Positions 886 to 50,938 of a stretch of DNA of 52,997 nucleotides are shown here, piece after piece; position 1 is the stretch's first letter; every line of letters begins with the position of its first letter. The notes under the pieces were generated by a model that searched no databases, had not been told where the DNA came from, and worked only from the letters and a program-made list of their open reading frames with translations. The position numbers and the translations under genes were made by a program. This DNA is from a virus (lineage: Duplodnaviria; Heunggongvirae; Uroviricota; Caudoviricetes). Location: IMG/VR virus record IMGVR_UViG_2585427779_000013, positions 1-52,997 of that record; one strand, given 5' to 3'.

Positions 886-1047
886 TTACGCCACCGTTAC
901 ATTGTCAACCTTAATGTAATATTCAGGGTTGTTTTCTATTTCAGATTTAAACTTAGAAAAACATTCCCGCCATTCATGGGCTTGATTATTGAAGTAGTAC
1001 ACCGTATGGCGTTCTATTTTGTACAAAATCCCCGTTGATTTAGCCAT
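886..1047 (-). CDS. small hypothetical protein (54 aa, MAKSTGILYKIERH...)
   Basis: ATG-initiated ORF not in the six-frame track (<60 aa); stop lies 1 nt before start of the 231-884 gene; contains the perfect palindrome TTTTGTACAAAA at 1017-1028. Confidence 0.35.
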   Translation of the reverse strand: MAKSTGILYKIERHTVYYFNNQAHEWRECFSKFKSEIENNPEYYIKVDNVTVA

Positions 1048-1061
1048 GTAATAACTAACCA

Positions 1062-1493
1062 TCATTGCCCCCAGCGTTTTATAAATTCCTCGTTTAATTT
1101 CGTATCACCCGACCATTGAACATCATGTTCAGCACCGAACGAGTAGATCAATTCGATTAGTTCGCTGAATTCTGATTTACTCATTCGACTTGTAGACGTT
1201 CCCAATACAACGAAGCCTGATTTATCTAGGTTAGGGACTACGCCATATTTCTTAAGTCCGGCAGTGAATACCGCTTTCCAGTCTTCCGGCGACAGCTTTT
1301 TACCGTACCAATTAACCTGATCGCTAATGTCGGTTAACAGCGCCCAAAGCAACGCATTTTGACTTAGCGAGCGGGTTTTCTCCTGGATGGTAATTATCAG
1401 CGGGCTTTTGCTATCAGGCTGGATCTCTCTTATCTGCCTGATAGCATTTTCTTTCACGGCGTCGTTTACTATCTCAAATCTAATTTGCCTCAT
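1062..1493 (-). CDS. ninB: NinB/Orf-family recombination protein
   Basis: 143 aa; SQNALLWALL motif and overall similarity to lambda NinB by recall. Confidence 0.75.
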   Translation of the reverse strand: MRQIRFEIVNDAVKENAIRQIREIQPDSKSPLIITIQEKTRSLSQNALLWALLTDISDQVNWYGKKLSPEDWKAVFTAGLKKYGVVPNLDKSGFVVLGTSTSRMSKSEFSELIELIYSFGAEHDVQWSGDTKLNEEFIKRWGQ

Positions 1494-1687
1494 AATACAC
1501 CGTTGCTATTTTTCCATTGTGCCCGTGCGTACATGATCGCCCGCAAAGAAATTAGGCGCGAGCTTGTCATAAAAGCGCTTTTTAAGTACCTCATATCAAC
1601 AACAACAGGCTTATCAGGATCATCGCCGCGCATGTATTCAGCAATAGTGCTTAAATCCTCCACGGTCAATTCTAAATCCTTGTCCAT
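1490..1687 (-). CDS. hypothetical protein (65 aa)
   Basis: ORF with 4-nt overlap (ATGA) onto ninB start, consistent with operon coupling. Confidence 0.45.
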   Translation of the reverse strand: MDKDLELTVEDLSTIAEYMRGDDPDKPVVVDMRYLKSAFMTSSRLISLRAIMYARAQWKNSNGVL

Positions 1688-1696
1688 AATTCCCCC

Positions 1697-2536: not shown

Positions 2537-3958
2537 TTAAAAGGATGCGTTATTCTGGTTATTTCGTGGGGAGAATCGGCTTGCTGCCGGACGTTGTTGC
2601 ATTGACTGGATGCAGGCGGACGCCGCGCGAGCCTGGTCGCATGGAATGATGTTGCCGTTATCGTCAAACCGCTGGTAAACAGTCCCCGTTTTCCCGTGAC
2701 GGTTTTTTGAAACAATGATCTCCATGTATTCGCGGGCAACTGATTGTTCGTTGTAGTAGCCGTCGCGGTAGACCATGATGATCCGGTCTGCGTCTTGTTC
2801 AAGATTACCGGAATCACGCAGATCAGAATTGTTCGGGCGCTTGTTCGGTCGTTCTTCAACGCGGCGGGATAATTGCGCCAGCGCCGCCACTGGCACGCGC
2901 AACTCTTTCGCCATCATTTTCAATGACCACGACAATTGCCCTACGGCGAGATCATGACGTTCGGCCTTAGCCAGCTTCATTAACCCGATGTAGTCAATCA
3001 TCACCATTCCAAGATTAGGATGGTCCTGTTTCATCCGTTCGACGGTGGCGCGTATTTCCTCGACCGTTAACTGAGATGCGTCAACAATCCACACATCGAG
3101 ATCGGCAAGGGCACTCATTCCTTGTGCGACGTGCGCCCAACCTTCGTCATCCAGTTTTACCGGATTACGTAGGCAATCCGTTGATAAGTTCCCAGCGCCA
3201 GCGATAGCACGTTCAGTCATCTGATCGAGCGACATCTCAAGCGTGAACAGCAAAACGCCGACCCGCTGACCTTCGCCGCCAGGGTATGGACGTTCAGCCG
3301 CCGCGCGGGCAATTGCCAACGCCAACGCCGATTTACCAGACCCCGGGCGTCCGGCGATAAGCACCAGATCAGTAGCGTTAATGCCGCCTAACATTTCGTC
3401 GAGTGGGTCAATCCCTGTTTTGATGTTGTCAGAGTTCACGCCACACTCCATGCGTTTACTTAGCACTTCCGTGTATTCCTGGACCGCATCGCGCAACAGC
3501 ACCGGGATAATTTGATCTTTTGTTACCTTTAATTTTGAATACCGGGAATCAAAATCTTTCATCGTCTCTTTGACGACTTCAAGCGTCCCTGTTTCCAGTT
3601 TGTAGCGCATATCGTCGATGAGTTCCAACATCTGCCGACGCTGGTGCTCTTCACGTAGTAGCTGTGCGTATCCCTTCAGGTTGGCAGCAGAAGGGCACGA
3701 TCGCGCCGTTTGCATTAGCGGCACAAAGTTTTCATTACCAATCTCATCACCAACCAGTAACGCGTCGATGAGATTTCTGTTTCTGGCTTGCGCACGGATA
3801 ATTTCAAAAGCCCGCTTATATAGCGGAATAGTGAATACTTCAGGATCTAGAGTAGCGAGAACGTCTTGCGCGTTAGGAGTAAGCCCACCTAACAGCAGGC
3901 CACCGATAACCGCAGATTCTCTTTCTTGCCGCAATGAGTTTACTTGTTCGGTTATCAT
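2537..3958 (-). CDS. dnaB: DnaB-family replicative DNA helicase
   Basis: 473 aa; Walker A GRPGSGKSALALAIA, DnaB-like N-terminal domain and RecA-fold C-terminal motifs; GGAGG RBS upstream. Confidence 0.9.
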   Translation of the reverse strand: MITEQVNSLRQERESAVIGGLLLGGLTPNAQDVLATLDPEVFTIPLYKRAFEIIRAQARNRNLIDALLVGDEIGNENFVPLMQTARSCPSAANLKGYAQLLREEHQRRQMLELIDDMRYKLETGTLEVVKETMKDFDSRYSKLKVTKDQIIPVLLRDAVQEYTEVLSKRMECGVNSDNIKTGIDPLDEMLGGINATDLVLIAGRPGSGKSALALAIARAAAERPYPGGEGQRVGVLLFTLEMSLDQMTERAIAGAGNLSTDCLRNPVKLDDEGWAHVAQGMSALADLDVWIVDASQLTVEEIRATVERMKQDHPNLGMVMIDYIGLMKLAKAERHDLAVGQLSWSLKMMAKELRVPVAALAQLSRRVEERPNKRPNNSDLRDSGNLEQDADRIIMVYRDGYYNEQSVAREYMEIIVSKNRHGKTGTVYQRFDDNGNIIPCDQARAASACIQSMQQRPAASRFSPRNNQNNASF

Positions 3959-3976
3959 TATGGCATCGCCTCCGGT

Positions 3977-5095
3977 TTACAAAATGGAATATTCAGGGTA
4001 ATAAACAAAGCGCCCGATTTCTCCATGATCCGGGCTGTAAATAATCACCGCTGCCAGCCGCCGCGACCGCCAACCACCATTCGTTGAATAAGCGTCTTTG
4101 CCAGCTAACGTGCCGTGATACTCAACAACGCCTAACGATGACTCAATCAGCCGTTGATGATGCCAGTGCCCGCAATGAGCGTAAACCGCCGCAGACTTGC
4201 CGAAATCCTCACGCCAGTCAGATACGCAAGCAGACAATAAATTTTCCGGCTTTTTGATAGTGTGCCCGTGGTGGTAAGCAAGGAATGTTTTGCCGTACTG
4301 TGTGTGGTGGACGATAGCAGGGGACACATCAACCGTCACGCGCGGTTCATCTTCGTAAAAAGCCGCCAGCGCCGCGCGTAGCCAAATCATGCCTGACTGA
4401 TCGTGATTGCCTGATAACACCTGGATTTCAACATCCTTATGATTTAGTAACATCTTCCCGACCGCACGCCGGACCGACCGGATCGCCACGTAAACCAGTT
4501 TTGCGTAGCGTGAATCGCAATCCAGGACGTGATTGCTTGATGGCGTCACTGGTAACAGGCCGTCAGTATGAAGCACATCACCGCCGAGAAGTAAAACAGC
4601 CTTTTCAGACATTGGCGCAGCGCCTACCGCGTAGTCGAAGAAATCATTTAGCACACGTTCAGCGATCCCGGTGTCGTAGCTTTCGCCGCATTCAGCTTTA
4701 TGAGCAAGCGCCCCGATATGTAGATCGAATACCGGATAAAGGGCCAGGCTTTTTTGGAAATCAATTTCCGGCACTGGCACGGCCTCCGCGCGTGGCATAT
4801 CTTCCGTGAAAGCATCGCAAGCCGCTTGCATTAGCCTTTCCATTTCATCGCGATCACGGGCTGTTTTAATCCAGCGCATAATCACATTGCCATCCTTATC
4901 GACGAGCAAAGACTCACCATTGATGCCAAAACCAGGCGCGCGACGCGTGGATATTAAACCGCGCTTTGCCAATCGTGCGCCCAGCCGTTCGACGTTGCGT
5001 TTTGCCATGCCGTACTTTTCAGCGATCTGTTTATATGTCAGGCCGCTGTTATGTTCAGCGATTAGTTGTTCATCGCTGATCTTTCTTTGTGACAT
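3977..5095 (-). CDS. HTH domain fused to calcineurin-like metallophosphoesterase (372 aa)
   Basis: N-terminal HTH (LTYKQIAEKYGMAKRNVERL); C-terminal motifs GDVLH, GNHD, HHGH, HCGHWHH typical of metallophosphoesterases; occupies the helicase-loader position between initiator and DnaB. Confidence 0.7.
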   Translation of the reverse strand: MSQRKISDEQLIAEHNSGLTYKQIAEKYGMAKRNVERLGARLAKRGLISTRRAPGFGINGESLLVDKDGNVIMRWIKTARDRDEMERLMQAACDAFTEDMPRAEAVPVPEIDFQKSLALYPVFDLHIGALAHKAECGESYDTGIAERVLNDFFDYAVGAAPMSEKAVLLLGGDVLHTDGLLPVTPSSNHVLDCDSRYAKLVYVAIRSVRRAVGKMLLNHKDVEIQVLSGNHDQSGMIWLRAALAAFYEDEPRVTVDVSPAIVHHTQYGKTFLAYHHGHTIKKPENLLSACVSDWREDFGKSAAVYAHCGHWHHQRLIESSLGVVEYHGTLAGKDAYSTNGGWRSRRLAAVIIYSPDHGEIGRFVYYPEYSIL

Positions 5096-5256
5096 AACGT
5101 TACTTCCTCATGTTTACAGAATGTATATTTATTTTCCGTAAAACGCGCTACAACGCAAAATTCCACCGCGTAACCCATTTGTAAGGGTGCAGTGTCTTTT
5201 TTGCGCCAGAGGCGCTATCAGGTGGCTAATTTTCGATTTACAGACTGGTAGGTAGG

Positions 5257-5358
5257 TTATGGATTAACGAGAAGGTACAAACCGCCGAACAAAGCGACGT
5301 TAACAGCGATTACCGCAGCGATGGCAAAAGCCAGGGCGAAAACGTGTTTACCGTCCAT
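5257..5358 (-). CDS. small hydrophobic peptide (33 aa, MDGKHVFALAFAIAAVIAVNVALFGGLYLLVNP)
   Basis: ATG ORF with AGAGGA RBS 7 nt upstream; single predicted TM helix; not in ORF track (<60 aa). Confidence 0.3.
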   Translation of the reverse strand: MDGKHVFALAFAIAAVIAVNVALFGGLYLLVNP

Positions 5359-5490
5359 TTTAAAATCCTCTCTGTAACGCTCTATAACGAGCTAATCGCA
5401 AAAGGTAAGCAAGTGTAGCCCCATATGCGATTTAGCTCGCTGGTGAGGTTGTTTTGTGGGTAATTTTGGATTTTTGCGGATCGTGGTTGG

Positions 5491-6543
5491 TCAAAGAACG
5501 CCAGCGCGTGTATCACGTAGCGTTTTTGGTTTAAGCAGGAAATCAAGTGTCGCAGTAAAGCCATTGCCGAAGTAAAAATCTGAAGCCGTGTTTTTGAACG
5601 TTTCGAAGTAGGCGACAAAGCCGTTAATGCTTTTGTCTTTCAGGTAGTCAGTGAACGCATAGATCTTGCGTTCAAGATCCCGATCCAGTTCGGCAGGTGG
5701 TAACAGGCCGTCAAACGTGCTGTTAAATGCTTCCACCACGTCGGCAGCGTTTACAGTAGCTGATAGCTTGCGCCATTGTTCAGCATCAGCCAAATACCCA
5801 TCAAACTTAGTTACCCGGCAAATGTTGATAGGCTTAGGTGTTCCGCCACGGCTACGCCATTGCGTTAAAGCCCACTCAATCACTAATGTGATCTCATCCT
5901 CCGTATACGCTTTACGTGTTTTTGTTTCTGTCAGTAGTTCTACGAATGGCTTAGCGTCACGACATTTGCATCCTGCCTTGTCGTTGTAGAAGGCAAGGCA
6001 ACGCAATGCCGCTTCGTTTACGCCATCCTGATTGACCATTTTTTGTTCATTTTCGACAATACACGAAGTGTATATATCTTTTTCTCTTTCTTTTTCTACT
6101 TCTAATTCTAATTCATGACCCTTTCCTGACCCGGTCATGACCCTATCATGACCTTTTTGTGTTGGATTGATTAACTTTTCTAATTTTAATTGCTCCTTCG
6201 CTGTGTTTATGGCGGCCCTGTAAGCGCTTTTAGAAGTCATTGATTGGTCCAGCCTTTTCAATAACTTTAAACAAGTTATGTGGCCTTGAGAACATTCAAA
6301 CAAACCAATTTCGATGAAGTATTTCATCATTTCTTCTATACGTTTTTCAGTAGATCCGACGTTTCGCGCAATTATTCTTGCGTCATGTCGTAGGTCAAAA
6401 GTTAGATTGTGCTGATCTACGTCATAAGTTATTAGTTCTAGGCAATACCAATAAAGCCCGTACCCTTCCAGGCCATAATCTAATAAAACGTTTTGAAGTT
6501 TTTCATCGCGGTTCGCATCGCTATCATGCTTAAACCACTTCAT
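5491..6543 (-). CDS. phage replication initiation protein (O-like replisome organizer)
   Basis: 350 aa; N-terminus MKWFKHDSDANRDEKL is the hallmark of phage replisome-organizer N-domains by recall; lies immediately upstream of helicase module. Confidence 0.75.
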   Translation of the reverse strand: MKWFKHDSDANRDEKLQNVLLDYGLEGYGLYWYCLELITYDVDQHNLTFDLRHDARIIARNVGSTEKRIEEMMKYFIEIGLFECSQGHITCLKLLKRLDQSMTSKSAYRAAINTAKEQLKLEKLINPTQKGHDRVMTGSGKGHELELEVEKEREKDIYTSCIVENEQKMVNQDGVNEAALRCLAFYNDKAGCKCRDAKPFVELLTETKTRKAYTEDEITLVIEWALTQWRSRGGTPKPINICRVTKFDGYLADAEQWRKLSATVNAADVVEAFNSTFDGLLPPAELDRDLERKIYAFTDYLKDKSINGFVAYFETFKNTASDFYFGNGFTATLDFLLKPKTLRDTRAGVL

Positions 6544-6546
6544 AGA

Positions 6547-6801
6547 TCATTCCTCCGGCAATGCAATGTCATAAATGTCGCCGTATTCGTCAGCGCGTTT
6601 AATGAATCCTTTGCGGATCAATGAATTTAATGCGTCAACAGCAGTATGCAGTGGCAGTTCGCACACTTTTGCGATCTCTTCGCGTGAAGCATGTGCGCGG
6701 CCTTTGTTGTCTGCCTTTTCTGCAAACGCAATTAAGACAAGTTTTTGGATCGGGCTGTTAAGTTTTACGTTCCATGCTTCATTCATCATGTGCATACTCA
6801 T
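6547..6801 (-). CDS. winged-helix/HTH DNA-binding protein in Cro/CII position (84 aa)
   Basis: HTH segment ASREEIAKVCELPLHTAVDALNSLIRKGFI; first gene of minus-strand operon divergent from repressor; GGAGA RBS. Confidence 0.65.
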   Translation of the reverse strand: MSMHMMNEAWNVKLNSPIQKLVLIAFAEKADNKGRAHASREEIAKVCELPLHTAVDALNSLIRKGFIKRADEYGDIYDIALPEE

Positions 6802-7107
6802 CTTGTTTTTCTCCTATGGTTAGAGTGAACGCGCGGGCGGGCATCCCATTAGCATTAGATAGCAGTGACTGACCGCTCAACAGATCCCGCCGTTGCGTGA
6901 TATTTGTTTTTCGCTTCGCAGCGACACCGGATTTTTAAAGAGCTTAAGGTAAGTGCCTTTTTGTGCCTTCCGTTATCTTTTTCCTTGCGTCTTTGCAAGT
7001 ATGGCCTTACCTTGTCTGCAAGTTTACAAAATGGAATTTTAAGATCAAGGCTTAAAATACACGTTTTGTGACTTGCATCAAACTTTTTGAGGTTATAGGG
7101 TAGCGAC
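6802..7107. promoter_or_regulatory. divergent immunity-region control region (candidate PR/PRM-like promoters and operators)
   Basis: 306-bp non-coding gap between divergent repressor and Cro-position gene; repeated half-site TGCAAGT at 6994-7000 and 7017-7023 and inverted as ACTTGCA at 7071-7077; inverted repeat AAGGTAAG/CTTACCTT; motif TTTACAAAATGG at 7023-7034. Confidence 0.5.
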
Positions 7108-7755
7108 ATGAAAACAAAATGGTATGACTTAGCAAAGCAGCTCATGCGGGCGCAGGGCATGAGTCAGGATTCACTCGCAGATCTCATGGGGATAACTAAA
7201 GGCGGCCTGTCACACTGGCTTAACGGTCGCCGCGAGCCAAATCTTGAAGATATTGCGCGGATTATGCGGGCGCTTGGGCGTCGTCAGTTCACTGTTACAC
7301 ATGATGGTATGGTCATTGATGATTCTGTTTCTAATACACTTCAGGCCGCACCGCCGCGTGATTTAGGTAGTTACCCGGTTATTGACTGGAAGGACACAGT
7401 AAACAATATGGATGACACAAGGCGATCAGCATTACCACACGTTACGACTAGCGTTATTTGTTCAGATGATAGTTACTGGCTGGTTGCCAAAGGTGAATCA
7501 ATGAACGCGCCGCAGGGGTTAAGCATCCCGGCGGGGACGATGATACTTGTTGACCCGCACGCGCCAGCTATTGACGGCAAACTGGTTATAGCCCAGCTTG
7601 AGGAAGGGCAGATACCGACGTTTAAACAGTTGATTATTGATGGAGGTCAAAGGCTTTTACGTTCGCTGAATCCGCTGTATCCGCCAATCCCTATGAATCC
7701 AGAATCAAAAATTATAGGCGTGGTGGTTGATGCGAAGATCGTAACCCTGCCATAA
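7108..7755 (+). CDS. CI-like phage repressor (HTH plus LexA/S24 peptidase domain)
   Basis: 215 aa; N-terminal XRE-type HTH; C-terminal S24 autoproteolysis motifs (AKGESM serine, TFKQL lysine). Confidence 0.85.
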   Translation: MKTKWYDLAKQLMRAQGMSQDSLADLMGITKGGLSHWLNGRREPNLEDIARIMRALGRRQFTVTHDGMVIDDSVSNTLQAAPPRDLGSYPVIDWKDTVNNMDDTRRSALPHVTTSVICSDDSYWLVAKGESMNAPQGLSIPAGTMILVDPHAPAIDGKLVIAQLEEGQIPTFKQLIIDGGQRLLRSLNPLYPPIPMNPESKIIGVVVDAKIVTLP

Positions 7756-7786: not shown

Positions 7787-7878
7787 CCTGGAAAACACCA
7801 AAACGTAAACAGAAAACGTTATTTATTATTTAAATATCAATGGTATATAAAATATTATAAAAAAGTATACAAAATGGA

Positions 7879-7907
7879 TTGACTCGGTGTTTTACGGGGC
7901 GTATATT
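7879..7907 (+). promoter_or_regulatory. candidate sigma70 promoter (PL-like)
   Basis: TTGACT (7879-7884), 17-bp spacer, TATATT (7902-7907); motif TATACAAAATGG ends 2 bp upstream of the -35. Confidence 0.45.
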
Positions 7908-8255
7908 GCGAATCAAAGGAAGGGCGCAGGTAACAAAAGCAACTTCCTGGCACTTTAAAAATCAGGCTTAACACCTTGTCAACCGTGGAGTAACTCCCCG
8001 ATGGGGGACCGAAAGCGGCACTGATAACAAGGCGCATGGGGTGTTTAAAGCGTTACATCCCCCACGAAACCGCACGCAAGGCGACGAGTCAGCTTGCTTG
8101 GAGTGAGCAAGGTCACGCCGGGAACGGCGATGATTGCGGGATTAGTTGAAAGATGTTAAGCCGCTCATTAACAATCTGGTCAGCCGCTGGAAGTGCGGCA
8201 ATTAACGAAGATGATTTTTTATTAAGTATCATCAAGGATATACGGAGATCAGATT

Positions 8256-8546
8256 ATGAGCGTTACAATTATATATGGTAAATGTGATAGCAAAATGAAT
8301 GCCAGGGAACGCAGAAGGATAAAAAGAGAAAACGAAAGAAAATCATCACCTGCAATCAATAAAACAGACAATGTGGATAAAGCTATTCGATTTGCAAACG
8401 AGGAAAGATGCAAACCAAATAGCATTAAAGAACGTCGCAAAGGATCAGTAAAATGGTATACGGAAAATGAAAGCGGCAGCTACTACCACGCAACGCAACC
8501 ACGCCATTTAGGGGAAAAACCCCTAGATAAAGTCCGCTATCATTAA
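8256..8546 (+). CDS. putative N-like antitermination protein (arginine-rich motif)
   Basis: 96 aa; segment MNARERRRIKRENERK resembles the ARM of lambda N (MDAQTRRRERRAEKQ) by recall; GGAG RBS before 8256; alternative start at ATG 8295 would place the ARM at the N-terminus. Confidence 0.45.
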   Translation: MSVTIIYGKCDSKMNARERRRIKRENERKSSPAINKTDNVDKAIRFANEERCKPNSIKERRKGSVKWYTENESGSYYHATQPRHLGEKPLDKVRYH

Positions 8547-8695
8547 TACAAAATGTAAACATCCGGAGATGACATTATGGTTATTCAGGCGCTTCAATTC
8601 AAACTGGCAGTAGCGGAAATGCTTCACGATGCCGAAATGTGGAGCGCCGCGAATAAAGCCTTATACATAGTGTTAACAGCGAAGGAGGCTAGTTA

Positions 8696-12361: not shown

Positions 12362-12459
12362 CCGAGTGATTCCGATTACATAAATATACATTATGTATTG
12401 TGATCGCATATCCGTTTTGTAAGCCAAAATCAAAAGGTTTACGGTGCGGAGGAAGCAAA

Positions 12460-15897: not shown

Positions 15898-16056
15898 AGT
15901 TTACAAAATGGCGTCATTGCGTGATATGGATCACATAATGGCGCTTTTCGCCTTGTTCTGGTGTATCCATTTTGTATACTTCAAGCAAACAAAATGCTCT
16001 TTAAAAATCCGGCAGCGCTGAAATGCGTAGAAATCACCTGAAAAGGAGAGAGCATT

Positions 16057-37051: not shown

Positions 37052-37729
37052 ATGATTCATGTTCGAACAGGACAATTTGCGGCGGTGGTAGACGGCAGGC
37101 GGTATGTGTTTAATCCCTGTTTCGCTGCAATGGCTAAGATCGGTAGTGACAGAGAACTGGTCGAATACTTCGCAACCATCCACGGTGGCAAATATCCATC
37201 ACGATTGCCAGCAGATCCAGACCTACGCAATCGCATTCTGGCGCGGTGTTATGGTGAGATAGTGCAAACGTCAATACACATCCTGAAATGTTGCTCAGAA
37301 GACGAAATAGGCCCGTTATTGGGTGAATGTAGGTTTACTCCTTCCGGCAAATTGCGACTAAAACCCGGACTGATGCCGACCAGTGACGTTATCACGCTGG
37401 CGCAACATTGCATGTACCACGGCTTAATCGGTGACGGGCCGGAAGAAGACGCCGGAGAGATCCGGGAAGGGGAATATAAGCCTACTTTTAACGTGCTGGA
37501 ATTCGTTTATTCTGCCGTTGCTCACCTGGGCTTGTCAGAATCGGAAGCATGGAATATGACAATGACCGGATATAGGGCCGCTGTACGCGCTAAAACGCCG
37601 CCAGACGAAAGAAACGAGAGAAGCAAGCCAAACGTTCACATAAATAAACGTGCTTATGACGAGCAAATGGAGGTCGCTAAAAAGGCACTAGAAAGAATGA
37701 AAAATCGAGAGCAAGAAAAAGCCCGGTAG
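37052..37729 (+). CDS. putative tail assembly chaperone (225 aa)
   Basis: GGGTGA RBS, ATG 37052 (MIHVRTGQF); position between major tail and tape measure genes. Confidence 0.45.
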   Translation: MIHVRTGQFAAVVDGRRYVFNPCFAAMAKIGSDRELVEYFATIHGGKYPSRLPADPDLRNRILARCYGEIVQTSIHILKCCSEDEIGPLLGECRFTPSGKLRLKPGLMPTSDVITLAQHCMYHGLIGDGPEEDAGEIREGEYKPTFNVLEFVYSAVAHLGLSESEAWNMTMTGYRAAVRAKTPPDERNERSKPNVHINKRAYDEQMEVAKKALERMKNREQEKAR

Positions 37730-37745
37730 ATCCGGGCGTTTTTGT
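37716..37745. terminator. bidirectional terminator between chaperone gene and reverse-strand moron
   Basis: AAAAAGCCCGG-TAGAT-CCGGGCGTTTTT, A-run and T-run on either side. Confidence 0.7.
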
Positions 37746-37754: not shown

Positions 37755-38075
37755 TTATGCTATTTTTTCGTAAAGCACATTCATCTGGGTGCGAATCACT
37801 GTTAATATATTGATTGCTGCGTTCTTATCAATGCGTTTATTCGCTACTATTTTTGTTTTCCCATCAATAACAACCAGATCTGCGTGCAATACATGGTTGA
37901 AGTTAATAATGTAATAATACTGTTTATCGCCAACATGTTGAACATATGCACCATTTAGATTTCCTTTATACCCACAATCACGCTCTGCGACACCGAAGTC
38001 AAATTCGCGGTTCATCTTGCGATTATATGCTACTTGTTTATGTTCCCATTTTCTCATCCATTCATCGCGCTTCAT
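37755..38075 (-). CDS. hypothetical moron protein (106 aa)
   Basis: Reverse-strand ORF inside tail cluster, coupled to upstream lipoprotein gene. Confidence 0.5.
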   Translation of the reverse strand: MKRDEWMRKWEHKQVAYNRKMNREFDFGVAERDCGYKGNLNGAYVQHVGDKQYYYIINFNHVLHADLVVIDGKTKIVANKRIDKNAAINILTVIRTQMNVLYEKIA

Positions 38076-38084
38076 GTTTCACCC

Positions 38085-38744
38085 TTAATTCCAGTTGCAA
38101 GCGTTTTTTACTTTGTCGATGTGGTTATAAAGACCATCAATGTTAAACACTGCTTTCTCAATGTCGCCAGCTTCCGGCACTACTTCAATGATGAATTGTT
38201 TTTCGTTAACCATTTTTTTAATCATTGGGATGGCTTTTTTGCCGTCCCATAATCCAAGAGCTTTATAATTAGTTGACCGTCCCCACTCAGTAGCTACAGC
38301 TTTGTGAACGCCGATCCGGTAGTTAATATAAGTAGTGTCCCCGGCGTCAGTTACATGGTGTGACCATGCTACGAACATTTTTGTTTTATTACCCTGGCAA
38401 GCGATTGTTAATACCGGTTTATTCTTATCCTGTGCCTTCAGTGTCGGGAAAGCATCAAGACTTCCGCTGAATTGTTCTGCTTTCACAAAAAGGAATACGT
38501 TTTTTGCGTCCTGCATATCATCTTTTCTTTCAACTACAAGCCACTGTTTACCAGCATTTTCTTTTTCTAACTGTGCATCGTATGCGGCTTGTTTTGCTTG
38601 TTGTTCTGCAAGCCATTTAGCATTTTTCTCTGCTAATGCTTGTTGTTCTTGATTGGTCACTATAGGCGCTTTTTCATTATCCTCATTGCAACCAACCAGA
38701 CCCAATACCGCCGCAATCATTGCCACTTTTGCTAACTGTTTCAT
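38085..38744 (-). CDS. moron lipoprotein (219 aa)
   Basis: Signal peptide with lipobox MKQLAKVAMIAAVLGLVGC; coiled-coil rich N-terminal region. Confidence 0.6.
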   Translation of the reverse strand: MKQLAKVAMIAAVLGLVGCNEDNEKAPIVTNQEQQALAEKNAKWLAEQQAKQAAYDAQLEKENAGKQWLVVERKDDMQDAKNVFLFVKAEQFSGSLDAFPTLKAQDKNKPVLTIACQGNKTKMFVAWSHHVTDAGDTTYINYRIGVHKAVATEWGRSTNYKALGLWDGKKAIPMIKKMVNEKQFIIEVVPEAGDIEKAVFNIDGLYNHIDKVKNACNWN

Positions 38745-39004
38745 AACCCACCACGCTTAGTTTTTATTTTTAAGTGATTTTAACATTTCTTCAATGAAAT
38801 CCGCATAGCGTTCATGTTCGTTGGGACGGTAGTTTACGTTTTTCATTTTCTTGTCCTCTTTTGCTTCCTCCGGTTTATCCGGTCCTTTTAAATCCCTTTA
38901 CTCTATCCATTTCCTTTAGCCTCTTTATACAAAATGTATTCGTTGAAGTGAAGCCATTTTGTATAAAATAGAGACATAGATCACATCTTGTATGAGGTTA
39001 AATC

Positions 39005-41354: not shown

Positions 41355-41382
41355 AAGGCCGCTTATAGCGGCCTTTATTTTA
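41355..41382. terminator. bidirectional terminator after tape measure gene
   Basis: AGGCCGC-TTATA-GCGGCCT followed by TTATTTT. Confidence 0.7.
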
Positions 41383-41667
41383 CATGGTGAGAATATAAAT
41401 CAAACAGCACAGGAATACAGGTGCGGCGAAGTCGCAAACGCTAGCCATATTCCATGCTTTAGGTAATAATCCGCCATACCACGGCATTCTTTCCCGTTTT
41501 CCACCGCAAAATTCCGCTATGTAACGATATTCAGCCTGCGTGTGTTCCCGTGCAAAAAAGAATGTACATCCAATCAGGCCGCCAGTGAGATAATCACCAG
41601 TAAGCAGGCCGATAACAACCTGCATAGCCGCCGCAGCCAGTGCGTGACCAATGACGGTTAAATCCAT
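41380..41667 (-). CDS. moron membrane protein (95 aa)
   Basis: Three hydrophobic segments; reverse strand inside tail cluster. Confidence 0.5.
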   Translation of the reverse strand: MDLTVIGHALAAAAMQVVIGLLTGDYLTGGLIGCTFFFAREHTQAEYRYIAEFCGGKRERMPWYGGLLPKAWNMASVCDFAAPVFLCCLIYILTM

Positions 41668-41669
41668 TG

Positions 41670-41855
41670 TTAATCCTCCTGATCGTTCTCAAATGTGCCA
41701 TCTATAAATTTTTGAAGCCCGGCGATAAGTTGCGTCGCCTGCGATTTGTCAATTACGAGGGTGTCAGTCCCCATGAGTTCGGTTATCCATAGCCGACCAT
41801 CCTCATCAAGATCTAACCTAACTCCGTAACATAACTCTGTTTCGTCAATAATCAT
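41670..41855 (-). CDS. moron acidic small protein (61 aa)
   Basis: ORF 2 nt upstream of membrane protein gene (coupled pair). Confidence 0.45.
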   Translation of the reverse strand: MIIDETELCYGVRLDLDEDGRLWITELMGTDTLVIDKSQATQLIAGLQKFIDGTFENDQED

Positions 41856-41964
41856 TTTTCCTCCTATAATCTTCCGTTACGTGCTACGTAACCACTGCCG
41901 AACATCACCAACCAAATATTCCAGATCTCCCGCCAGGTGAATTTATCGTCCTCCATGTCCCACC

Positions 41965-42219
41965 TCACTTATGCACCCCTTTGACTCCACAGTGCCTGTT
42001 ATATTCCAGATGATCGATAATTAACCAGACTTTTAGGTCTTCGCTAAACAGCCTCCAGTCAGGGGTGATGTCGAATTTAAAGCCATAACCATCACGTAAC
42101 TTTTTGGGGCGCGCCTCTTTCTTCAAAAATGCTTTAAGCAGTTCCCTCCCTTTCTTGATAATCCTGTCTTGTGCGTTTTTCTGTACTTTCAGGTTTTTAT
42201 CAATCGCTACCAGTTTCAT
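41965..42219 (-). CDS. moron basic small protein (84 aa)
   Basis: Reverse-strand ORF. Confidence 0.45.
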   Translation of the reverse strand: MKLVAIDKNLKVQKNAQDRIIKKGRELLKAFLKKEARPKKLRDGYGFKFDITPDWRLFSEDLKVWLIIDHLEYNRHCGVKGVHK

Positions 42220-42236
42220 AACTCACCCCATCATCC

Positions 42237-42392
42237 TTAGTTGAGTGCCTTCAGGAAGAAATCACGGTATTCATCTTCTTTTGCATTCATCATGAATTGA
42301 CCGTATTTGAATGCGTCGTCGAAGCCCTTAACGATTGCTATTTCCACTTGTTCGAATGCGTTGTTCAGCATTACCACTACATAGCGTTTCAT
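42237..42392 (-). CDS. moron small protein (51 aa; possible N-terminal extension to 42467)
   Basis: ATG at 42392 has GGAGG RBS; an in-frame upstream ATG at 42467 lies inside the TTTACAAAATGG motif. Confidence 0.45.
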   Translation of the reverse strand: MKRYVVVMLNNAFEQVEIAIVKGFDDAFKYGQFMMNAKEDEYRDFFLKALN

Positions 42393-42560
42393 TTTTGGCC
42401 TCCTTCGTTGGTACTGCTTTTCTTCTTGCTTTCTATATACATCTTGTTGCGTACTATGTGAAGCCATTTTGTAAACTAGCTATAATCATTGTGATTAAGA
42501 TCTCATTTTTCGCGTAGAGGCGCGTAAAGATATATACAAAATGTAACTTATGGGGGTTTT

Positions 42561-43105: not shown

Positions 43106-43131
43106 AAAACACCCCGCCACGGCGGGGTTTA
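43104..43131. terminator. bidirectional terminator
   Basis: AAAAAAC-ACCCCGCC-ACG-GCGGGGT-TTAT. Confidence 0.65.
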
Positions 43132-43204: not shown

Positions 43205-43453
43205 TCATAACGCCCCCTTCAAATATGTCAATCCCTTATCAGTGACGAATGAATGATTAACCTTGTTTTCATCCGTCATGATGATGAATAACTTTTCCTG
43301 CAAGTATTTTGCTTTCGGGTACAGCGTTAAGCAGACCTGGTATAAAATCCCGCGCTCAATCAGCAAATCAATAAATTCGTGTTCATGATAACCGACGAGG
43401 CGGGCGGCCTGTTTCAACGTGTACACATAATCACCGTGATTGCGCCGCCCCAT
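43205..43453 (-). CDS. moron protein with HTH-like segment (82 aa)
   Basis: TLKQAARLVGYHEHEFIDLLIERGIL resembles a DNA-binding helix-turn-helix. Confidence 0.45.
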   Translation of the reverse strand: MGRRNHGDYVYTLKQAARLVGYHEHEFIDLLIERGILYQVCLTLYPKAKYLQEKLFIIMTDENKVNHSFVTDKGLTYLKGAL

Positions 43454-43462
43454 GTTGTCGCC

Positions 43463-43810
43463 TTATTTATCGAACGCAGACAAATTGTCGATACAGAAAT
43501 CTTTTGCCGCTTTTTCGTATTCGCGTTTTGCTTGCGGATCGTCTGCCGGGAAACCTTTTGCGTGTATTTCACCAGGGCAAGACTGATCCATAGAATCAGC
43601 AAATTCAACATTGACGTTAAAGTTAATATCTTTCGGATTCATGTTTTCCACCTCATCAATTATCTGCACCGGATTAGCGGCATATTTCACTGGATGGCCT
43701 AAACTACATTCAAGAATCCTGCCTTCTTCCAGGGCTGCCTCTTCGCTATCAAATAATCCGAAACACTCCTTGCAACCACTTAACCACACATCAAGACTAT
43801 ATTTTTGCAT
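43463..43810 (-). CDS. moron protein (115 aa)
   Basis: Reverse-strand ORF, several Cys residues. Confidence 0.45.
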   Translation of the reverse strand: MQKYSLDVWLSGCKECFGLFDSEEAALEEGRILECSLGHPVKYAANPVQIIDEVENMNPKDINFNVNVEFADSMDQSCPGEIHAKGFPADDPQAKREYEKAAKDFCIDNLSAFDK

Positions 43811-43822
43811 TTCGTTAACCTC

Positions 43823-43978
43823 TCATTTGACAGGTTCGATTCTGTACCCCAAAACGCGTTCGTCTTCAGCGAGTAATAGCGCGTCAGTCAGTGCCTCGCC
43901 TTCGTCTTTATACAGAGCTACAGTCATTTCCCTGCCACCTGACAGGAATACCTTCAACCTCCACACCTTATCAGCCAT
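43823..43978 (-). CDS. moron small protein (51 aa)
   Basis: ATG 43978 with GGAGG RBS; in-frame upstream ATG at 43996 sits in motif CCATTTTGTTAA. Confidence 0.4.
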   Translation of the reverse strand: MADKVWRLKVFLSGGREMTVALYKDEGEALTDALLLAEDERVLGYRIEPVK

Positions 43979-44107
43979 CTCACACCTCCGCGCCATTTTG
44001 TTAACTGTGCTTCCGTTTGAGTAAAATATACATATTGTATAAACCGCGATCAATCCATTTTGGTATGATTTAGCGTGACGCAGATCACAAAATCAGAAGG
44101 TGAGAAA

Positions 44108-44812: not shown

Positions 44813-44814
44813 TC

Positions 44815-46019: not shown

Positions 46020-46033
46020 TAGGAGGATTAACC

Positions 46034-49000: not shown

Positions 49001-50482
49001 GCAAGAAGCGACGCAATAACAGAGGTTAAAGCTGATTTAACCACGCTTGAAAATAGCACAAACGCCAGTGTTAGACGCCTTGATCAAGCTATCGCTGACG
49101 AATCAAGCGCGCGCGCCCAGGCAATATCAGGCATCAGTGCGGAGCTTGGTCTTGTTAAAAGTGATGTTGATAAAAACAGCGACAAGATAGAGCAGGCGAA
49201 AGCAAGTCTGCAAAACGCCTCGATTGCACTTATCAACAACTCAATAGCGCAAAGCAAGATGGGCACTGTTATTGAGGCGAAATACAGGAAAGGACAGACA
49301 AAAACAAAAGCGGAAATAGCAAGGATCGACACAGCAATAGCAGACGAAACACAGGCCCGCGCGGAGGCTATAGCATCACTTGAAGCCAATATTAATGAAA
49401 ACATTTCAGCAAAAATAACAGATATATCAACGGCGCTAGCTACTCACGAGGCATCAAGTGCTGAAAAATTTGTCAAAATATCGGCATCTTTCGACGATGT
49501 AAACTCAAGCATCACGGAATGGTCGCAGGCCATGTCAACGGCAGATGAGGCGTTATCGACAAAAATTGATCAACTGAAAGTGACCGTTAACGGAAACACA
49601 ACAGCGATCGAGACAACATCGAAAGCGTTAACCGATTTTAAAGGTAACGTTGATGCGTCATATTCAATCAAGATTGCCACTGATAACAACGGTATGAAAT
49701 ACGCAACAGGAATGTCACTTGGCCTAACTGGCAGCGGTACTGATGTTCAATCGCAGTGCATTTTCCTTGTTGACCGATTCGTGTTAATGACTGCCGCAAA
49801 CGGCACATATCAGACACCTTTCTATGTCACTAACGGCGCAATGTATGTGCGCGAAGCGTTTATTAAAGACGGTTCAATCGACAATGCAAAAATAGGCAAT
49901 GTCATAACGTCATACAATTGGAACGGTAGCGATCAAGGTTGGGCAATAGTTAAAGATGGCTGGGCTACATTTAACAACGTTACAGTACGCGGCACGGTAT
50001 ACGCTAATTCTGGTGTGTTTAACGGTGCTGTTTACGCGACTGACGGTAAATTCAGAGGCACTGTAGAAGCTACATCCTTTGTTGGTGACGTTGCGAGTAT
50101 GTCAGTAATTCCAGAGGCAACATTCCCTGCGCAATCAGGGTCAGGTAGCAGGAGTGTAACCAAAAATTATTGGGATTCATCATCATCCGCTTTATCGAAA
50201 ACGGTTTATGTAATGATACCTTATAACCTTGCTTACTATATATATAACCAGTCTGGACGCATTAACGTAACCATAAACATTAACGGAAATTCAAAGACTA
50301 TAGACATAGAAAGGGCGGCATCAACGCCCCACAAGTCAGACGTTGCCGTTCATTGTGTTTCAGGTATTACATCTCAGCATGTTTCCGTAACTGTTACAGA
50401 AAACTACACAAATACATCATCAGCGGCAATAAGGAGACCAGGCCTAGTCCTTGTCACAAGAAGCTCAGGATCGTGGTCATAA
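46034..50482 (+). CDS. host specificity / central tail fibre protein J
   Basis: 1482 aa; lambda J-like N-terminal region, fibronectin-III-like segment, internally duplicated coiled-coil region near C-terminus. Confidence 0.85.
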   Translation: MSSGGGKAKTPTLINDNLYHKQFYRVLDIISEGPIYGPVNTKAPLNSVMLNDTPVTDANGNTSVPGVSVAWRNGTLDQSPINGFNAIESTVIVNAQVKHDTPIIRTVSDPNVTRVRLNIGVDSLVQSDEQSNQHNTSVMMMIDVKPSSSSTWTLVKDVTIGPGKISGEYLEAHIINAPDEKPFDIRVRRVTADSTSDLLQNDTRWSSYSEIIDDNLSYPHTAVAGAVIDHDQYTDTPTRTYHLRGLIVDVPDNYNPETRTYSGLWLGGFKKAYTNNPAWIFRYLVKNERFGLARHAGYIDVDDGALYTLSRYCDQLVDDGYGGLEPRMTLNAYITEQMSARDLLDNIAGMFRGIALWDGQRLTVMIDAPQDPIATITNANVVDGAFTRSSIARAECYNAVIVSWTDPENGWEQSKEYVADDELIARDGYNETTLEAFGCTSRGQAHRAGKWLIETAKREPSKFTFKMARDAIHFTPGDIIEILDNNRAGARLGGRIVANNGKVITVDKVDSEYIAAGDTISLLDGDGKFKKHQITGVNGNKITLAAAPAWIRNGTVFAVSTESAKPVLCRIISVAETENNSVYTIEAAQHDPKKQAVVDEGAIFEINNDTLNHFRVPNIENLKVVNIGSETVQCRATWETQTTTHRMTFEIRIYNADGAVVRSYETTKYSYDFYGIDSGAYSLGVRGRNDTGMKGAESIVDLVIGAPASPIGVNWVPGVFQATVYPISKTTLTTDTAYEFYYAGENQITDPAKITTSAQFTGRGYQWTFGGMNTGHTYYVYVRTRNAFGVSDFVEASGKPTENFDEISDYVTKDVMNSEQFKGMVSDIKDLGDRADIIESATADLKTATDGLKADTDTLKKDTEDLYKKVEENADGIGKHEVRIDSLEVSNENVNNELAQTKASLQNASLALINNSLAQTNTRVTLTAQYKKGRNETKAQIDRIDNVIAEEKKATAESLETITAEMNAMDSSIKGEIARVDKAIATETQARSDAITEVKADLTTLENSTNASVRRLDQAIADESSARAQAISGISAELGLVKSDVDKNSDKIEQAKASLQNASIALINNSIAQSKMGTVIEAKYRKGQTKTKAEIARIDTAIADETQARAEAIASLEANINENISAKITDISTALATHEASSAEKFVKISASFDDVNSSITEWSQAMSTADEALSTKIDQLKVTVNGNTTAIETTSKALTDFKGNVDASYSIKIATDNNGMKYATGMSLGLTGSGTDVQSQCIFLVDRFVLMTAANGTYQTPFYVTNGAMYVREAFIKDGSIDNAKIGNVITSYNWNGSDQGWAIVKDGWATFNNVTVRGTVYANSGVFNGAVYATDGKFRGTVEATSFVGDVASMSVIPEATFPAQSGSGSRSVTKNYWDSSSSALSKTVYVMIPYNLAYYIYNQSGRINVTININGNSKTIDIERAASTPHKSDVAVHCVSGITSQHVSVTVTENYTNTSSAAIRRPGLVLVTRSSGSWS

Positions 50483-50515
50483 AAATAACCCCGCTTTGCG
50501 CGGGGTTTTCTTTTA
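50483..50515. terminator. bidirectional terminator after J
   Basis: AAAAATAA-CCCCGC-TTTGC-GCGGGG-TTTTCTTTT. Confidence 0.75.
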
Positions 50516-50761
50516 GTAGTTAGCTACACAATTCGACGGGCTACCGATGCGGCGCATATTGTGATCTAGTTCATGACACCATTGACCAGTATATGGAAGT
50601 TTTTCAGTGTCATAGACAAGATGACCATTAGCATCATAGACAATTTCTTGAGGAATTACTCCGCTATTTGGCAGGTTGTGCAATGCAGCATCTTTGTCAA
50701 CAGCACAACCAGTAAGAGCAACAGCCGCAGCGAATAATACCACTTTGAGCATGTTTTTCAT
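50513..50761 (-). CDS. small lipoprotein, candidate receptor-blocking superinfection exclusion protein (Cor/Llp-like)
   Basis: 82 aa; signal peptide with lipobox MKNMLKVVLFAAAVALTGC; reverse strand between J and tail fibre gene. Confidence 0.55.
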   Translation of the reverse strand: MKNMLKVVLFAAAVALTGCAVDKDAALHNLPNSGVIPQEIVYDANGHLVYDTEKLPYTGQWCHELDHNMRRIGSPSNCVANY

Positions 50762-50938
50762 TTTTGAATCCCCATTCTCGTTAGCTCGCCAGGTTCATCC
50801 GGTGGCTTAAATATCCGACAAAACAACATTTCGTATATTGATATAAATCAATAAATACATTTTGTATAAGCCAGAAATGTAACACAGATCACAAAATGGT
50901 AAAATTACCAGGTTAATTAACATAATGGAGTCATTGCG

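Follow-up and report, generated by a model that had tools for sequence, protein, structure and literature searches.

A short DNA element that recurs along the genome of a coliphage is probably the operator for the lambda-CI-type repressor that the phage itself encodes at 7108-7755 of the window (the whole stretch of 52,997 nucleotides analyzed here, a member of the mEpimmI coliphage group of mEp021 relatives). An operator for a phage regulator had been among the functions proposed in the initial annotation, and this reading is preferred because the sites accompany this family of repressors in phages that are otherwise unrelated and occupy the operator positions of early promoters. With approximately 30 sites across a dozen gaps, the tail-gene region included, one repressor may silence many promoters. 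A role as a promoter element, also proposed, was upheld in part, and roles as a Dam switch or a recombination boundary were not.

Definition and distribution of the element

Allowing at most one mismatch, TACAAAATGG occurred 24 times in the window compared to 5.5 ± 2.5 times in 100 shuffled sequences, none of which (0/100) reached 24, and this exhaustive count against a shuffled background confirmed that the recurrent element is real. The top over-represented 10-mers outside the GC repeats were TACAAAATGG and CATTTTGTAT, and the 7-mer TACAAAA alone was weakly enriched (23 vs. 13.3). The element forms the core of a longer pseudo-palindromic 11-mer, TAC(A/G)-N3-(C/T)G(T/G)A, a symmetry supported by the flipped orientation of a site between genomes, and copies lacking the A-tract such as TACGGGGCGTA at 7893-7903 had been overlooked. 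The best conserved bases were central (CAAAATG) and most copies carried TGG instead of the symmetric TGT, rendering many sites strongly asymmetric. Outer bases dominate in the operators of lambda, 434, and P22, and the conservation of central bases here would make for a contact pattern unusual for a helix-turn-helix dimer. The 11-mer would sit within a footprint of approximately 17 bp, presumably occupied by a repressor dimer.

Sites scoring at least 15 bits with a 15-mer matrix were regarded as strong (n = 21) and 17 of these were mostly non-coding, in a window with 9.3% non-coding DNA (binomial P = 1.2e-14). This agreed with the earlier observation that nearly all copies lie in non-coding DNA or at gene junctions, and the element was equally frequent neither in coding DNA nor in the shuffled controls. 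Copies within genes were scarce and mostly at chance level (3595, 22707, 33448, and 40524), with two exceptions that both lie in the repressor gene (7113-7123, covering codons 2-6, and 7399-7413). The total came to approximately 29 sites in approximately 12 intergenic regions from 3978 to 50929, and not the 20 or so gene boundaries first reported. The element was present at all but one of the positions originally given, the exception being 50868-50878, which reads AAGCCAGAAAT and has its true copy at 50856-50866; the palindrome at 1017-1028 has the conserved G in neither reading and counts as a weak site at best.

The element had also been placed on both flanks of every reverse-strand island, but it was found on one flank, the 5' or promoter side. 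The other, motif-free flank carries equivalent bidirectional terminators at 37721-37737 (the 3' end of island 1), 41355-41375, and 43111-43128. A two-operator promoter module comprising an operator, a -35, and a second operator overlapping the -10 occurs at least seven times in the window and lies upstream of each of the first three reverse-strand islands, and seven operator pairs have starts 24-25 bp apart.

The repressor and the immunity region

The proposed binder of the motif is a 215 amino acid protein encoded on the plus strand (7108-7755) with, as in lambda CI, an N-terminal helix-turn-helix (Pfam HTH_3, 5e-13) and a C-terminal LexA-like S24 domain (Peptidase_S24, 4e-19), and it matches the lambda repressor 3BDN over its full length (E 1e-19). 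It is a homologue of Rep021, which confers immunity (PMC11893012). The main rightward early promoter (7868-7907, plus strand) is the best sigma-70 match in the window and includes operator TACAAAATGGA (7868-7878, centered at approximately -41) directly before the -35 TTGACT (7879-7884), as correctly noted in the initial annotation, followed by operator TACGGGGCGTA (7893-7903, centered at approximately -16), the -10 TATATT (7902-7907), and the nutR1 boxA downstream (7950-7966). Its upstream operator was invariant in 34 unique sequences, and the spacer drifts with the half-sites AC(G/A)..CGTA being kept.

Upstream of the repressor gene, a divergent control region (7017-7123) kept in 26 unique sequences holds operators at 7025-7035 (TACAAAATGGA), 7060-7070 (CACGTTTTGTG), and 7113-7123 (AACAAAATGGT, inside cI) together with a 27-nt imperfect palindrome (7017-7043/7051-7077), and the nutL boxA is located at 6927-6943 on the minus strand. 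A promoter scan identified a candidate leftward promoter, TTGATC (7048-7043)-16-TAAACT (7026-7021), with one operator overlapping its -10. The candidate PRM-like promoter, TTGCAT (7073)-17-TAGGGT (7101), would start at the A of the cI start codon (ATG), so that a leaderless repressor mRNA is possible; a relative with 55% identity has the matching layout CCATTTTGTGAC-TTGAAT-17-TAGGAT-6 nt-ATG. One operator lies at approximately -43 of this candidate weak promoter, which is where lambda CI binds to activate PRM.

This organization resembles lambda and phage L in that operators overlap the -35 or -10 of the divergent early promoters next to the repressor gene (7868 and 7893 rightward, 7025 leftward), with nut sites and an N-like gene downstream, and in that one site is at approximately -42 of the repressor's own promoter. 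As in lambda OR and OL, the pseudo-palindromic operators form adjacent pairs with starts 24-27 bp apart, and the lambda OR1/OR2 spacing of approximately 23-24 bp permits pairwise cooperativity. Unlike lambda and phage L, the replication genes lie to the left and the N and recombination genes to the right of the repressor, and a third nut site is present.

The link to the repressor family, like the sites themselves, their conservation, and their geometry, is read directly from the sequence. Sites were conserved at matching positions in approximately 85 related loci (43 immunity-region and 42 late-region), and 0-1 match was found in 38 phages with a 67-72% identical tail protein that share the tail module alone (approximately 650 kb). 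The syntenic phage L156-158 carries the same motif at approximately 17 sites in 20 kb; its CI is 55% identical overall with an identical N-terminal arm and recognition helix (ITKGGLSHWLNGRREPN), and the Cro-position proteins of this phage and the window are unrelated (E 0.26). Four prophage types and Salmonella phage L (P22-like, Lederbergvirus ST64T) have unrelated backbones with only the repressor family in common (38-54% identity), and in each the interval separating the repressor gene from the divergent gene contains two to three copies of TAC(A/G)N3(C/T)GT, spaced by approximately 33 and 25-27 bp at the positions expected of OR and OL. Loci that extend to the promoter on the opposite side have two to three further copies there, and few or none occur elsewhere in the examined segments. 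The 11-mer and the operator/-35/operator/-10 layout of the rightward early promoter recur in phage L and L160, with TACAAAATGGA-TTGACT-..TACGGGGCG-TATATT in the window corresponding to TACATTTTGTA-TTGACG-..TACATTTTG-TATTGT at phage L PL, followed by boxA, boxB, and N, and to TCCGTTTTGTA-TTGACG-..TACGTTATG-TATTGT in L160, and operators are spaced by 24-27 bp in L156, L159-161, and phage L. It is this unrelated-backbone comparison alone that discounts other proteins common to mEpimmI and L156-158 as the binder, and a search among the relatives for a close heteroimmune phage with a changed recognition helix on the same backbone found none.

Proposed operators in the early and late regions

Lambda operators are confined to the immunity region. 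In the window, operators were not confined to two control regions flanking the immunity genes; unlike phage L and the prophage immunity segments examined, where sites keep to the immunity region, the approximately 29 sites and 12 regions include the tail-gene region. Further two-operator units lie ahead of the third nut site, in the early right arm (two places), in the left arm, and in the divergent gaps that separate islands 1-3 from the tail-gene segments after them. A few single sites occupy gene junctions with too little space for a promoter. Promoters in these modules were called as consensus matches only, and several modules have poor predicted -35 hexamers.

Two leftward early genes are separated by an 18-bp gap that has no space for a promoter. 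A single 23.5-bit operator-like site in this gap (3978-3988, plus strand) directly precedes, on the 5' side, the ribosome-binding site of the DnaB-like helicase gene, and is kept at the same junction in relatives with or without an adjoining HNH gene insertion. The operator pair at 5091-5130 (plus strand) consists of GACATAACGTT (5091-5101) and TACAGAATGTA (5115-5125) followed by TATATT (5124-5129), a rightward module antisense to the leftward operon, and its central A-tract is flipped in other genomes. The palindromic site TACAAAATGTA (8547-8557) overlaps the stop codon of the N-like gene (8256-8546) and recurs, +1436 from the start of cI, in 43 related loci. A three-site cluster conserved in 32 unique sequences (12387-12450) includes TACATTATGTA (12387-12397), TACAAAACGGA (12411-12421, minus strand), and TACGGTGCGGA (12440-12450), the first two forming a leftward module that ends in TATATT and has a poor -35. 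Upstream of nutR2, the cluster at 15902-16012 (plus strand) contains operators at 15902-15912, 15932-15942, and 15966-15976 (minus strand), a candidate promoter, TTGTTC (15953)-16-TATACT (15980), with a predicted start at approximately 15987, and the boxA TGCTCTTTAAAAATCC (approximately 15995-16012). The -35 TTGTT(A/C) and the -10 of this promoter are retained in divergent variants, and nutR2 has been located at this cluster (PMC11893012). An inverted pair (21571-21611) has operators at 21571-21581 and 21596-21606, starting 25 bp apart, with the candidate rightward promoter TTGCTC-17-TATAAA; the mEp010 counterpart of this pair carries an ARNold terminator annotation.

Between island 1 and the tape-measure gene, a symmetric bidirectional module (38924-38967) carries operators at 38928-38938 and 38953-38963, each at approximately -42 for one candidate promoter and approximately -16 for the other (TTCACT-17-TATAAA leftward and TTCGTT-17-TATAAA rightward). 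Both operators were invariant in 20 unique sequences and the intervening 16 nt vary, i.e., conservation is footprint-like. The control region that separates island 2 from the minor-tail gene (42434-42545) contains operators at 42439-42449, 42463-42473, and 42535-42545, a leftward module (TTCACA-17-TATATA), and a candidate rightward promoter, GTGAAG (42458)-17-TATAAT (42486), with an operator within its spacer; of 39 unique sequences, 38 retain the TATAAT and the operators. The region separating island 3 from tail gene L (43992-44064) is conserved in 31 unique sequences and has operators at 43992-44002, 44029-44039, and 44054-44064, a leftward module, ACCAAAATGGA-TTGATC-17-TATATT, and a candidate rightward promoter, TTGTTA (43998)-18-TAAAAT (44027), both promoters being found by the consensus scan and by a second scan (13.4 and 12.1 bits). 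Four sites (50825-50835, 50856-50866, 50890-50900, and 50919-50929) occupy the island-4 gap (50825-50929) between a lipoprotein gene (50513-50761, minus strand) and a tail-fibre gene (50939 onward), where a clear promoter module was looked for and not found despite the four sites. Among the inserted island genes are one for a ParE-like toxin and the lipoprotein gene of island 4, and relatives of this lipoprotein gene have been described as exclusion genes.

From this arrangement we infer repressor binding, repression and not activation at the individual sites, and activity of the predicted promoters. In a lysogen, a single repressor would shut a dozen transcription starts together, including secondary tail-gene promoters and those of the inserted islands, and the orphan sites would be roadblocks or partners in cooperative long-range binding. 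Morons are usually expected not to be repressed by the prophage repressor, and silencing of the inserted islands would be the reverse of this expectation. This argues against the operator reading, as do the central position of the best conserved bases, the asymmetry of many sites, and the poor -35 hexamers.

Comparable systems, competing explanations, and wider meaning

Dispersed repressor operators are an already known kind of system, and the unusual feature here is the two-operator promoter unit repeated through the genome. The C1 protein of phage P1 is a single immunity repressor with many scattered operators, each at its own promoter; it is a monomer that is not of the S24 type, its 17-bp site is asymmetric, and the P1 prophage is a plasmid. 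The window shares with it the dispersed operators under one repressor and differs in its S24-type repressor and pseudo-palindromic site. Streptomyces phage phiC31, from a Gram-positive host, has palindromic c repressor sites at many intergenic loci beside early promoters of a phage-specific type, and is alike in repeating a palindromic site at many intergenic loci and unlike in its unrelated repressor family. In cluster A mycobacteriophages (L5 and TipsytheTRex), a monomeric two-domain repressor has a 13-bp asymmetric site whose orientation follows transcription (PMC9283540). The window resembles these phages in having more than 20 sites at promoters and short intergenic gaps, and differs from them in its CI/S24-type repressor, pseudo-palindromic site, and mixed orientations.

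Stoperator-type silencing, with sites mainly halting elongating RNA polymerase inside operons and not acting on initiation, would account for the more than 20 sites in short intergenic gaps genome-wide and for those at 3978, 8547, and 5115, which lie in junctions without space or a plausible promoter for the downstream gene. It is nevertheless an unlikely general explanation, as the repressor belongs to the lambda-CI/S24 type, where the stoperator system has a monomeric two-domain protein, the site is pseudo-palindromic with a central tract that flips between genomes, unidirectional contexts are mixed (four antisense and three sense in the TGG class), and the majority of sites belong to promoter modules; such action at the few orphan sites can be compatible with the operator reading. 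An activator site or special promoter that switches on the moron and tail-gene units is more improbable still. Sites do recur at approximately -42, the class II activator position, beside weak -35 hexamers, the reverse reading gives -10-like hexamers (e.g., TGTATAAA and TGTAAACT), and one site lies approximately -43 relative to the putative repressor promoter, matching the location of activation by lambda CI. However, the palindromic core is best conserved and not the -10-like part, in which the critical last T is not conserved, and the near-consensus hexamers of the strongest site-bearing promoter make an activator unnecessary there. In addition, a second site overlaps the -10, a repressing position, in nearly every module and the same element makes textbook tripartite operators in phage L-type immunity regions. 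The suggestion of a late or moron promoter element therefore holds insofar as sites lie inside sigma-70-like modules upstream of islands and tail-gene segments, and fails in that the conserved core is a repressor-type palindrome and not a -10 or -35. Activation of selected promoters by the same repressor is possible as a sub-case of the operator reading.

The proposed methylation-sensitive switch, by which the phage or host Dam methylase would tune binding through an adjoining GATC, drew on three variants starting with GATC, GATCACAAAATGG at 50887 (invariant in 11 unique sequences), GATCACATAATGG at 15929, and AGATCACAAAATC at 44083, and the phage does encode the Dam-family methylase that had been annotated (Pfam 4e-50). 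Yet GATC was enriched neither in non-coding DNA (23 observed vs. 22.7 expected) nor near the sites (eight within 25 bp of operator centers vs. approximately six expected, a rough estimate from GATC density), it occurs in three of approximately 29 sites, and the consensus has TA where the GATC variants have TC, making such a switch highly improbable. Scarcely more credible is a recombination boundary, in which short conserved sequences would provide microhomology for gene-module exchange between phages. A hot spot at 5120-5140 (66 alignment ends) abuts the 5115 site, smaller break-point clusters lie near 38880-38900, 43980, and 50820, and an HNH gene is inserted next to the 3978 site in mEp010 and mEp021. 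Apart from that hot spot, proximity to break points was no general property, with 12% of the 1232 internal alignment ends lying 40 bp or less from a site compared to 23% of all non-coding positions, the largest break-point clusters (8680, 9120, 13380, 37740, 41340, and 48580) are distant from all sites, and recombination leaves unexplained both the fixed geometry with promoter hexamers and the link to the repressor family.

Beyond the operator reading, it is conceivable, if doubtful, that a lambda-CI-type repressor runs a genome-wide regulon through a duplicated two-operator cassette that has spread through the phage, tail genes included. In symmetric cassettes, the same two operators lie at approximately -42 for one promoter and approximately -16 for the divergent one, and graded occupancy could silence tail-gene and early promoters yet activate or set the level of neighboring island genes. 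With its many tetramer-binding cassettes, the prophage could also be looped into a compact structure that is repressed. If this holds, the tail genes would be transcribed partly from repressor-controlled sigma-70 promoters and not from a Q-dependent late promoter alone.

Gene layout and recurrence of the motif

The first 25 kb of the window were ~88% identical to Escherichia phages mEp010, mEp044, mEp554, mEp013, mEp515, and mEp021, and the last 25 kb displayed 85-90% identity to MagusPhagus and the same mEp phages. These phages make up mEpimmI, a prevalent group of gut coliphages first defined in 2025, whose members are temperate, Nus-dependent, and non-lambdoid and have a lambda-CI-like repressor (Rep021) demonstrated to confer immunity, the N-like Gp17, and three nut sites (PMC11893012). 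Gene calls from a strand-block caller, plus three long genes entered by hand, resolved leftward early genes (replication, helicase, and NinB; ~7000 down to 1), the gene of the Rep021 homologue (hereafter the repressor; 7108-7755, + strand), and rightward genes for N-like, Erf, methylase, NinG, Q-like, lysis, head, and tail functions (~7900 to 37700). Four islands on the reverse strand (37755-38744, 41380-42467, 43205-43978, and 50513-50761) broke up the tail region and encoded accessory-type products (VasI-like, a ParE-like toxin with a 51-aa partner, an ANT/KilAC fragment, and a lipoprotein).

The initial annotation described a motif with the half-site TACAAAA recurring in non-coding gaps and at gene junctions. 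Its recurrence was borne out by TACAAAATGG, the top non-GC 10-mer of the window, with 24 matches at one mismatch or fewer compared to 5.5 ± 2.5 in shuffles. The placement also held, as 17 of the 21 sites scoring at least 15 bits with a 15-mer matrix built from clear motif copies lay in the non-coding 9.3% of the window (P = 1.2e-14). The positions listed were correct in all cases but one, the copy placed at 50868-50878 being found at 50856-50866. Ahead of the exonuclease-like gene, the intergenic gap contained either TACATTCTGTAAAC or TACAAAATGTAAAC at one and the same position depending on the genome, and since the arms were kept while the central tract (an A-tract in GTATACAAAATGGATAC) was flipped, the site corresponds to the pseudo-palindrome TAC(A/G)-N3-(C/T)G(T/G)A. 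This 11-mer had 27 perfect matches compared to 7.2 ± 2.8 in Markov shuffles, 15-16 of them non-coding, and uncovered copies missed by eye such as TACGGGGCGTA at 7893-7903.

Across 43 IMG/VR loci encoding a 91-100% identical repressor, sites kept constant distances to the start of the repressor (-86, +2, +291, +757, +1436, ~+4860/4880, and ~+8400/8466), with left-arm sites near -4070 and ~-2930 that were displaced where insertions differed. In the late region, sites recurred ahead of the tape-measure, M, L, and tail-fibre genes in 42 loci. A single match was identified in ~650 kb from 38 phages with a 67-72% identical minor tail protein, so that the signal is a feature of the mEpimmI group rather than of the tail module. 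An identical repressor type was carried by all full-length relatives (immunity region in 35 genomes versus tail segment in 29), and heteroimmune close relatives, sought for a co-variation test, were absent from the IMG/VR contigs and E. coli genomes searched. Neither operators nor a repeat are described in the 2025 mEpimmI paper (PMC11893012). A full-text literature search with the motif sequence returned unrelated primers only, leaving mEpimmI operators unpublished in the searchable literature; a 2023 Arch Virol paper on Gp17 fell outside its results. The Gp17 paper reportedly maps nut sites and terminators.

The repressor family and the immunity region

A homologue search identified P0008, a repressor 55% identical overall to that of the window, on contigs syntenic with mEpimmI (integrase, NinB, DnaB, a 370-aa protein, replication protein, HTH protein, and repressor, followed by Erf, SSB, Dam, NinG, and RusA). 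Its first 60 residues, which contain both the MKTKW N-terminal arm and recognition helix ITKGGLSHWLNGRREPN, were nearly unchanged, the C-terminal domain had drifted, and its contigs shared the motif at ~17 sites per 20 kb. One matrix match on the P0008 contig L156, TTTAACAAAATGGAA, overlaps boxA through a coincidental similarity and could raise the motif count of this relative artificially. The Cro-position proteins were unrelated between these two lineages having the motif in common and were rejected as the binder. In the window this protein (6550-6801, - strand) matched HTH_36 and DnaD_N-type domains and is annotated in MagusPhagus as a replication initiation protein, such that the phage may lack a conventional Cro.

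Repressors of the same family (38-51% identical) were also found on unrelated backbones in Enterobacter (L159), a lambdoid Citrobacter prophage (L160), a metagenome (L161), and the prophages L047/L049. Each contained two to three TAC(A/G)N3(C/T)GT sites between the repressor and the divergent gene, spaced ~33 and 25-27 bp apart, with a further two to three at the promoter across the repressor gene in L159 and L160 and few or none elsewhere in 15-20 kb. The classical P22-like Salmonella phage L, whose repressor shares ~54% identity across the 69 N-terminal residues that were compared, had three sites in the interval from cro to the repressor gene. PL of phage L (GTACATTTTGTA, TTGACG, ATATTAAGTACATTTTG, and TATTGT, then boxA, boxB, and the N gene) was built like the window rightward early promoter (TACAAAATGGA, TTGACT, CGGTGTTTTACGGGGCG, and TATATT, then boxA at 7950-7966 and the N-like gene). 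Because the phages carrying both repressor and 11-mer share little else, the 11-mer is most simply read as the operator of this repressor family.

The predicted rightward early promoter scored best in the window (15.9 bits), with predicted operators centred at ~-41 and ~-16; the upstream operator was invariant in 34 unique sequences and the spacer drifted while keeping AC(G/A)...CGTA. Operators 7025 and 7060 lay within an imperfect palindrome of 27 nt (7017-7077) that precedes the repressor gene. The former overlapped the -10 of a candidate leftward promoter, TTGATC-16-TAAACT, whose transcript would traverse nutL boxA at 6943-6927, and the latter lay at ~-43 of a candidate promoter, TTGCAT-17-TAGGGT (7073-7110). 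The spacing of this candidate suggests a start at the A of the repressor ATG and hence a leaderless mRNA, and the 55%-identity relative L156 kept the layout as TTGAAT-17-TAGGAT-6 nt-ATG. An operator at ~-43 together with an extra site at +10 inside the gene mirrored lambda PRM, from which the repressor mRNA is leaderless. The mEp021 record has a later repressor start (198 aa); the MKTKW N-terminus is nonetheless conserved in distant homologues. An operator-like GTAAACAATATGGAT at 7399-7413, inside the repressor gene 291 nt from its start and present in most relatives, may reflect coding constraint or a regulatory role. The boxA elements at 6927-6943 (-), 7950-7966 (+), and 15995-16012 (+) had GCTCTTTAAAAATC in common, which closely resembles the ribosomal-RNA-type boxA.

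Promoter-operator modules in the early and late regions

The layout of the rightward early promoter (7868/7893) recurred as a module in which an 11-mer operator precedes a hexamer in -35 position, 17 nt, and a -10, with operator starts 24-25 bp apart and the second operator formed by the last nine bases of the spacer and the first two of the -10. This geometry accounts for the two sequence classes of the initial annotation, as TGG copies adjoin the -35 and TGT copies enter a TATAxx -10. Further modules were identified at 44054/44029 (leftward, TTGATC-17-TATATT, 13.4 bits), 38953/38928 (symmetric and bidirectional, read rightward as 38928/38953), 42463/42439 (leftward), 12411/12387, 21571/21596, and 5091/5115. 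The operator/TATATT modules at 5091-5140 and 12387-12421 are oriented against the surrounding operon and would therefore yield antisense transcripts; the former adjoins a segment of high variability, with 66 alignment ends clustered at 5120-5140. A further site covered the -10 of a candidate promoter, TTGTTC-16-TATACT (15953, start ~15987), ~10 nt upstream of nutR2 boxA (TGCTCTTTAAAAATCC). Beyond read-through from the main rightward promoter, nutR2 may thus be fed by its own repressor-controlled promoter, in which case all three nut sites would have one.

The motif had been placed on both flanks of the islands, whereas its clusters were confined to the 5' side, in divergent gaps ahead of the next tail gene; the 3' sides of islands 1-3 contained bidirectional terminators (37721-37737, 41355-41375, and 43111-43128). 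A TATAAT at 42481-42486, with an operator within its spacer, was fully conserved. Between the divergent promoters upstream of the minor-tail gene, the inverted repeat CGCGTAGAGGCGCG (42505-42528) follows TTTTT and was kept in 38 of 39 unique sequences. Island 2 starts with the 51-aa gene followed by the ParE-like gene (41968-42392; Pfam 4e-11), and this pair directly under one of the operator modules looks like a toxin-antitoxin system. Orphan single sites at 3978 and 8547 occupied junctions with too little room for a promoter. In mEp010 (5304-5894) and mEp021 (6080-6583), an inserted HNH/homing endonuclease gene precisely separates the helicase-proximal operator from the upstream gene; the window (3958-3977) is without the insert.

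From site position, we infer that in a lysogen repressor dimers would fill paired operators cooperatively and block initiation at the early promoters, internal promoters, and promoters of islands 1-3, as well as at secondary promoters of the tail-gene segments resuming after each island. At its own promoter, the repressor would stimulate transcription from -43 and limit it from +10, and orphan sites may serve as roadblocks or as anchors of long-range cooperative binding. Some island promoters may be activated from the -42 site, which would fit since accessory genes are usually expected to be expressed from the prophage.

Alternative readings and significance

As a sigma-70 -35 hexamer (TTTACA/TTGTAA) the motif had no consistent partner at 16-18 bp across sites, and as a -10 its final T was not conserved. 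Its ATG was a real start at none of the sites checked; that at 42467 lies upstream of the start in annotated relatives, where the 51-aa product has its own ribosome-binding site. Host-factor sites (IHF, Fis, DnaA, TyrR, CpxR, and OmpR) resembled the motif loosely and by eye only, and the group-specific distribution speaks against them. Inverted motif pairs were rejected as terminators for want of a subsequent U-run, despite an ARNold label in mEp010; this Rho-independent terminator T8 (23133-23177), the counterpart of the window 21571-21606 pair, is probably a mis-call of an inverted operator pair. A dedicated activator or special promoter element is unlikely, given that conservation falls on the palindromic core and that most modules have a site covering the -10.

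A Dam methylation switch, also proposed in the initial annotation, is contradicted by the counts, with GATC not enriched. A recombination boundary fails as a general property, as break points had no general association with sites apart from the hot spot at 5120-5140. Stoperator-like elongation block, in which sites halt transcription within operons, fits the orphan sites, but the window fails the features that define such systems, namely a repressor that is monomeric and has two domains, a site without symmetry, and dependence on orientation (PMC9283540).

The predicted repressor/operator relationship is itself ordinary for the family, as phage L displays the same sites in the same layout. The window stands out by dispersal, with ~29 predicted sites in ~12 regions, and by late-region copies of the early promoter-operator cassette. 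P1, phiC31, and cluster A mycobacteriophages likewise have dispersed repressor sites; to our knowledge, no such case is known among coliphages with a repressor of lambda-CI/S24 type. The prediction supplies the operator sequence, its ~29 sites, and early promoters feeding the three known nut sites, and through the cassette the repressor would directly control tail-gene segments as well as the inserted accessory genes. Should binding fail, the motif would still be a strongly conserved, group-specific intergenic signal wanting another explanation. If true, the system would offer ready-made repressor-controlled promoters of graded strength and, as a Gram-negative case built on a lambda-CI-type repressor, would parallel the dispersed operators of P1, phiC31, and mycobacteriophages.
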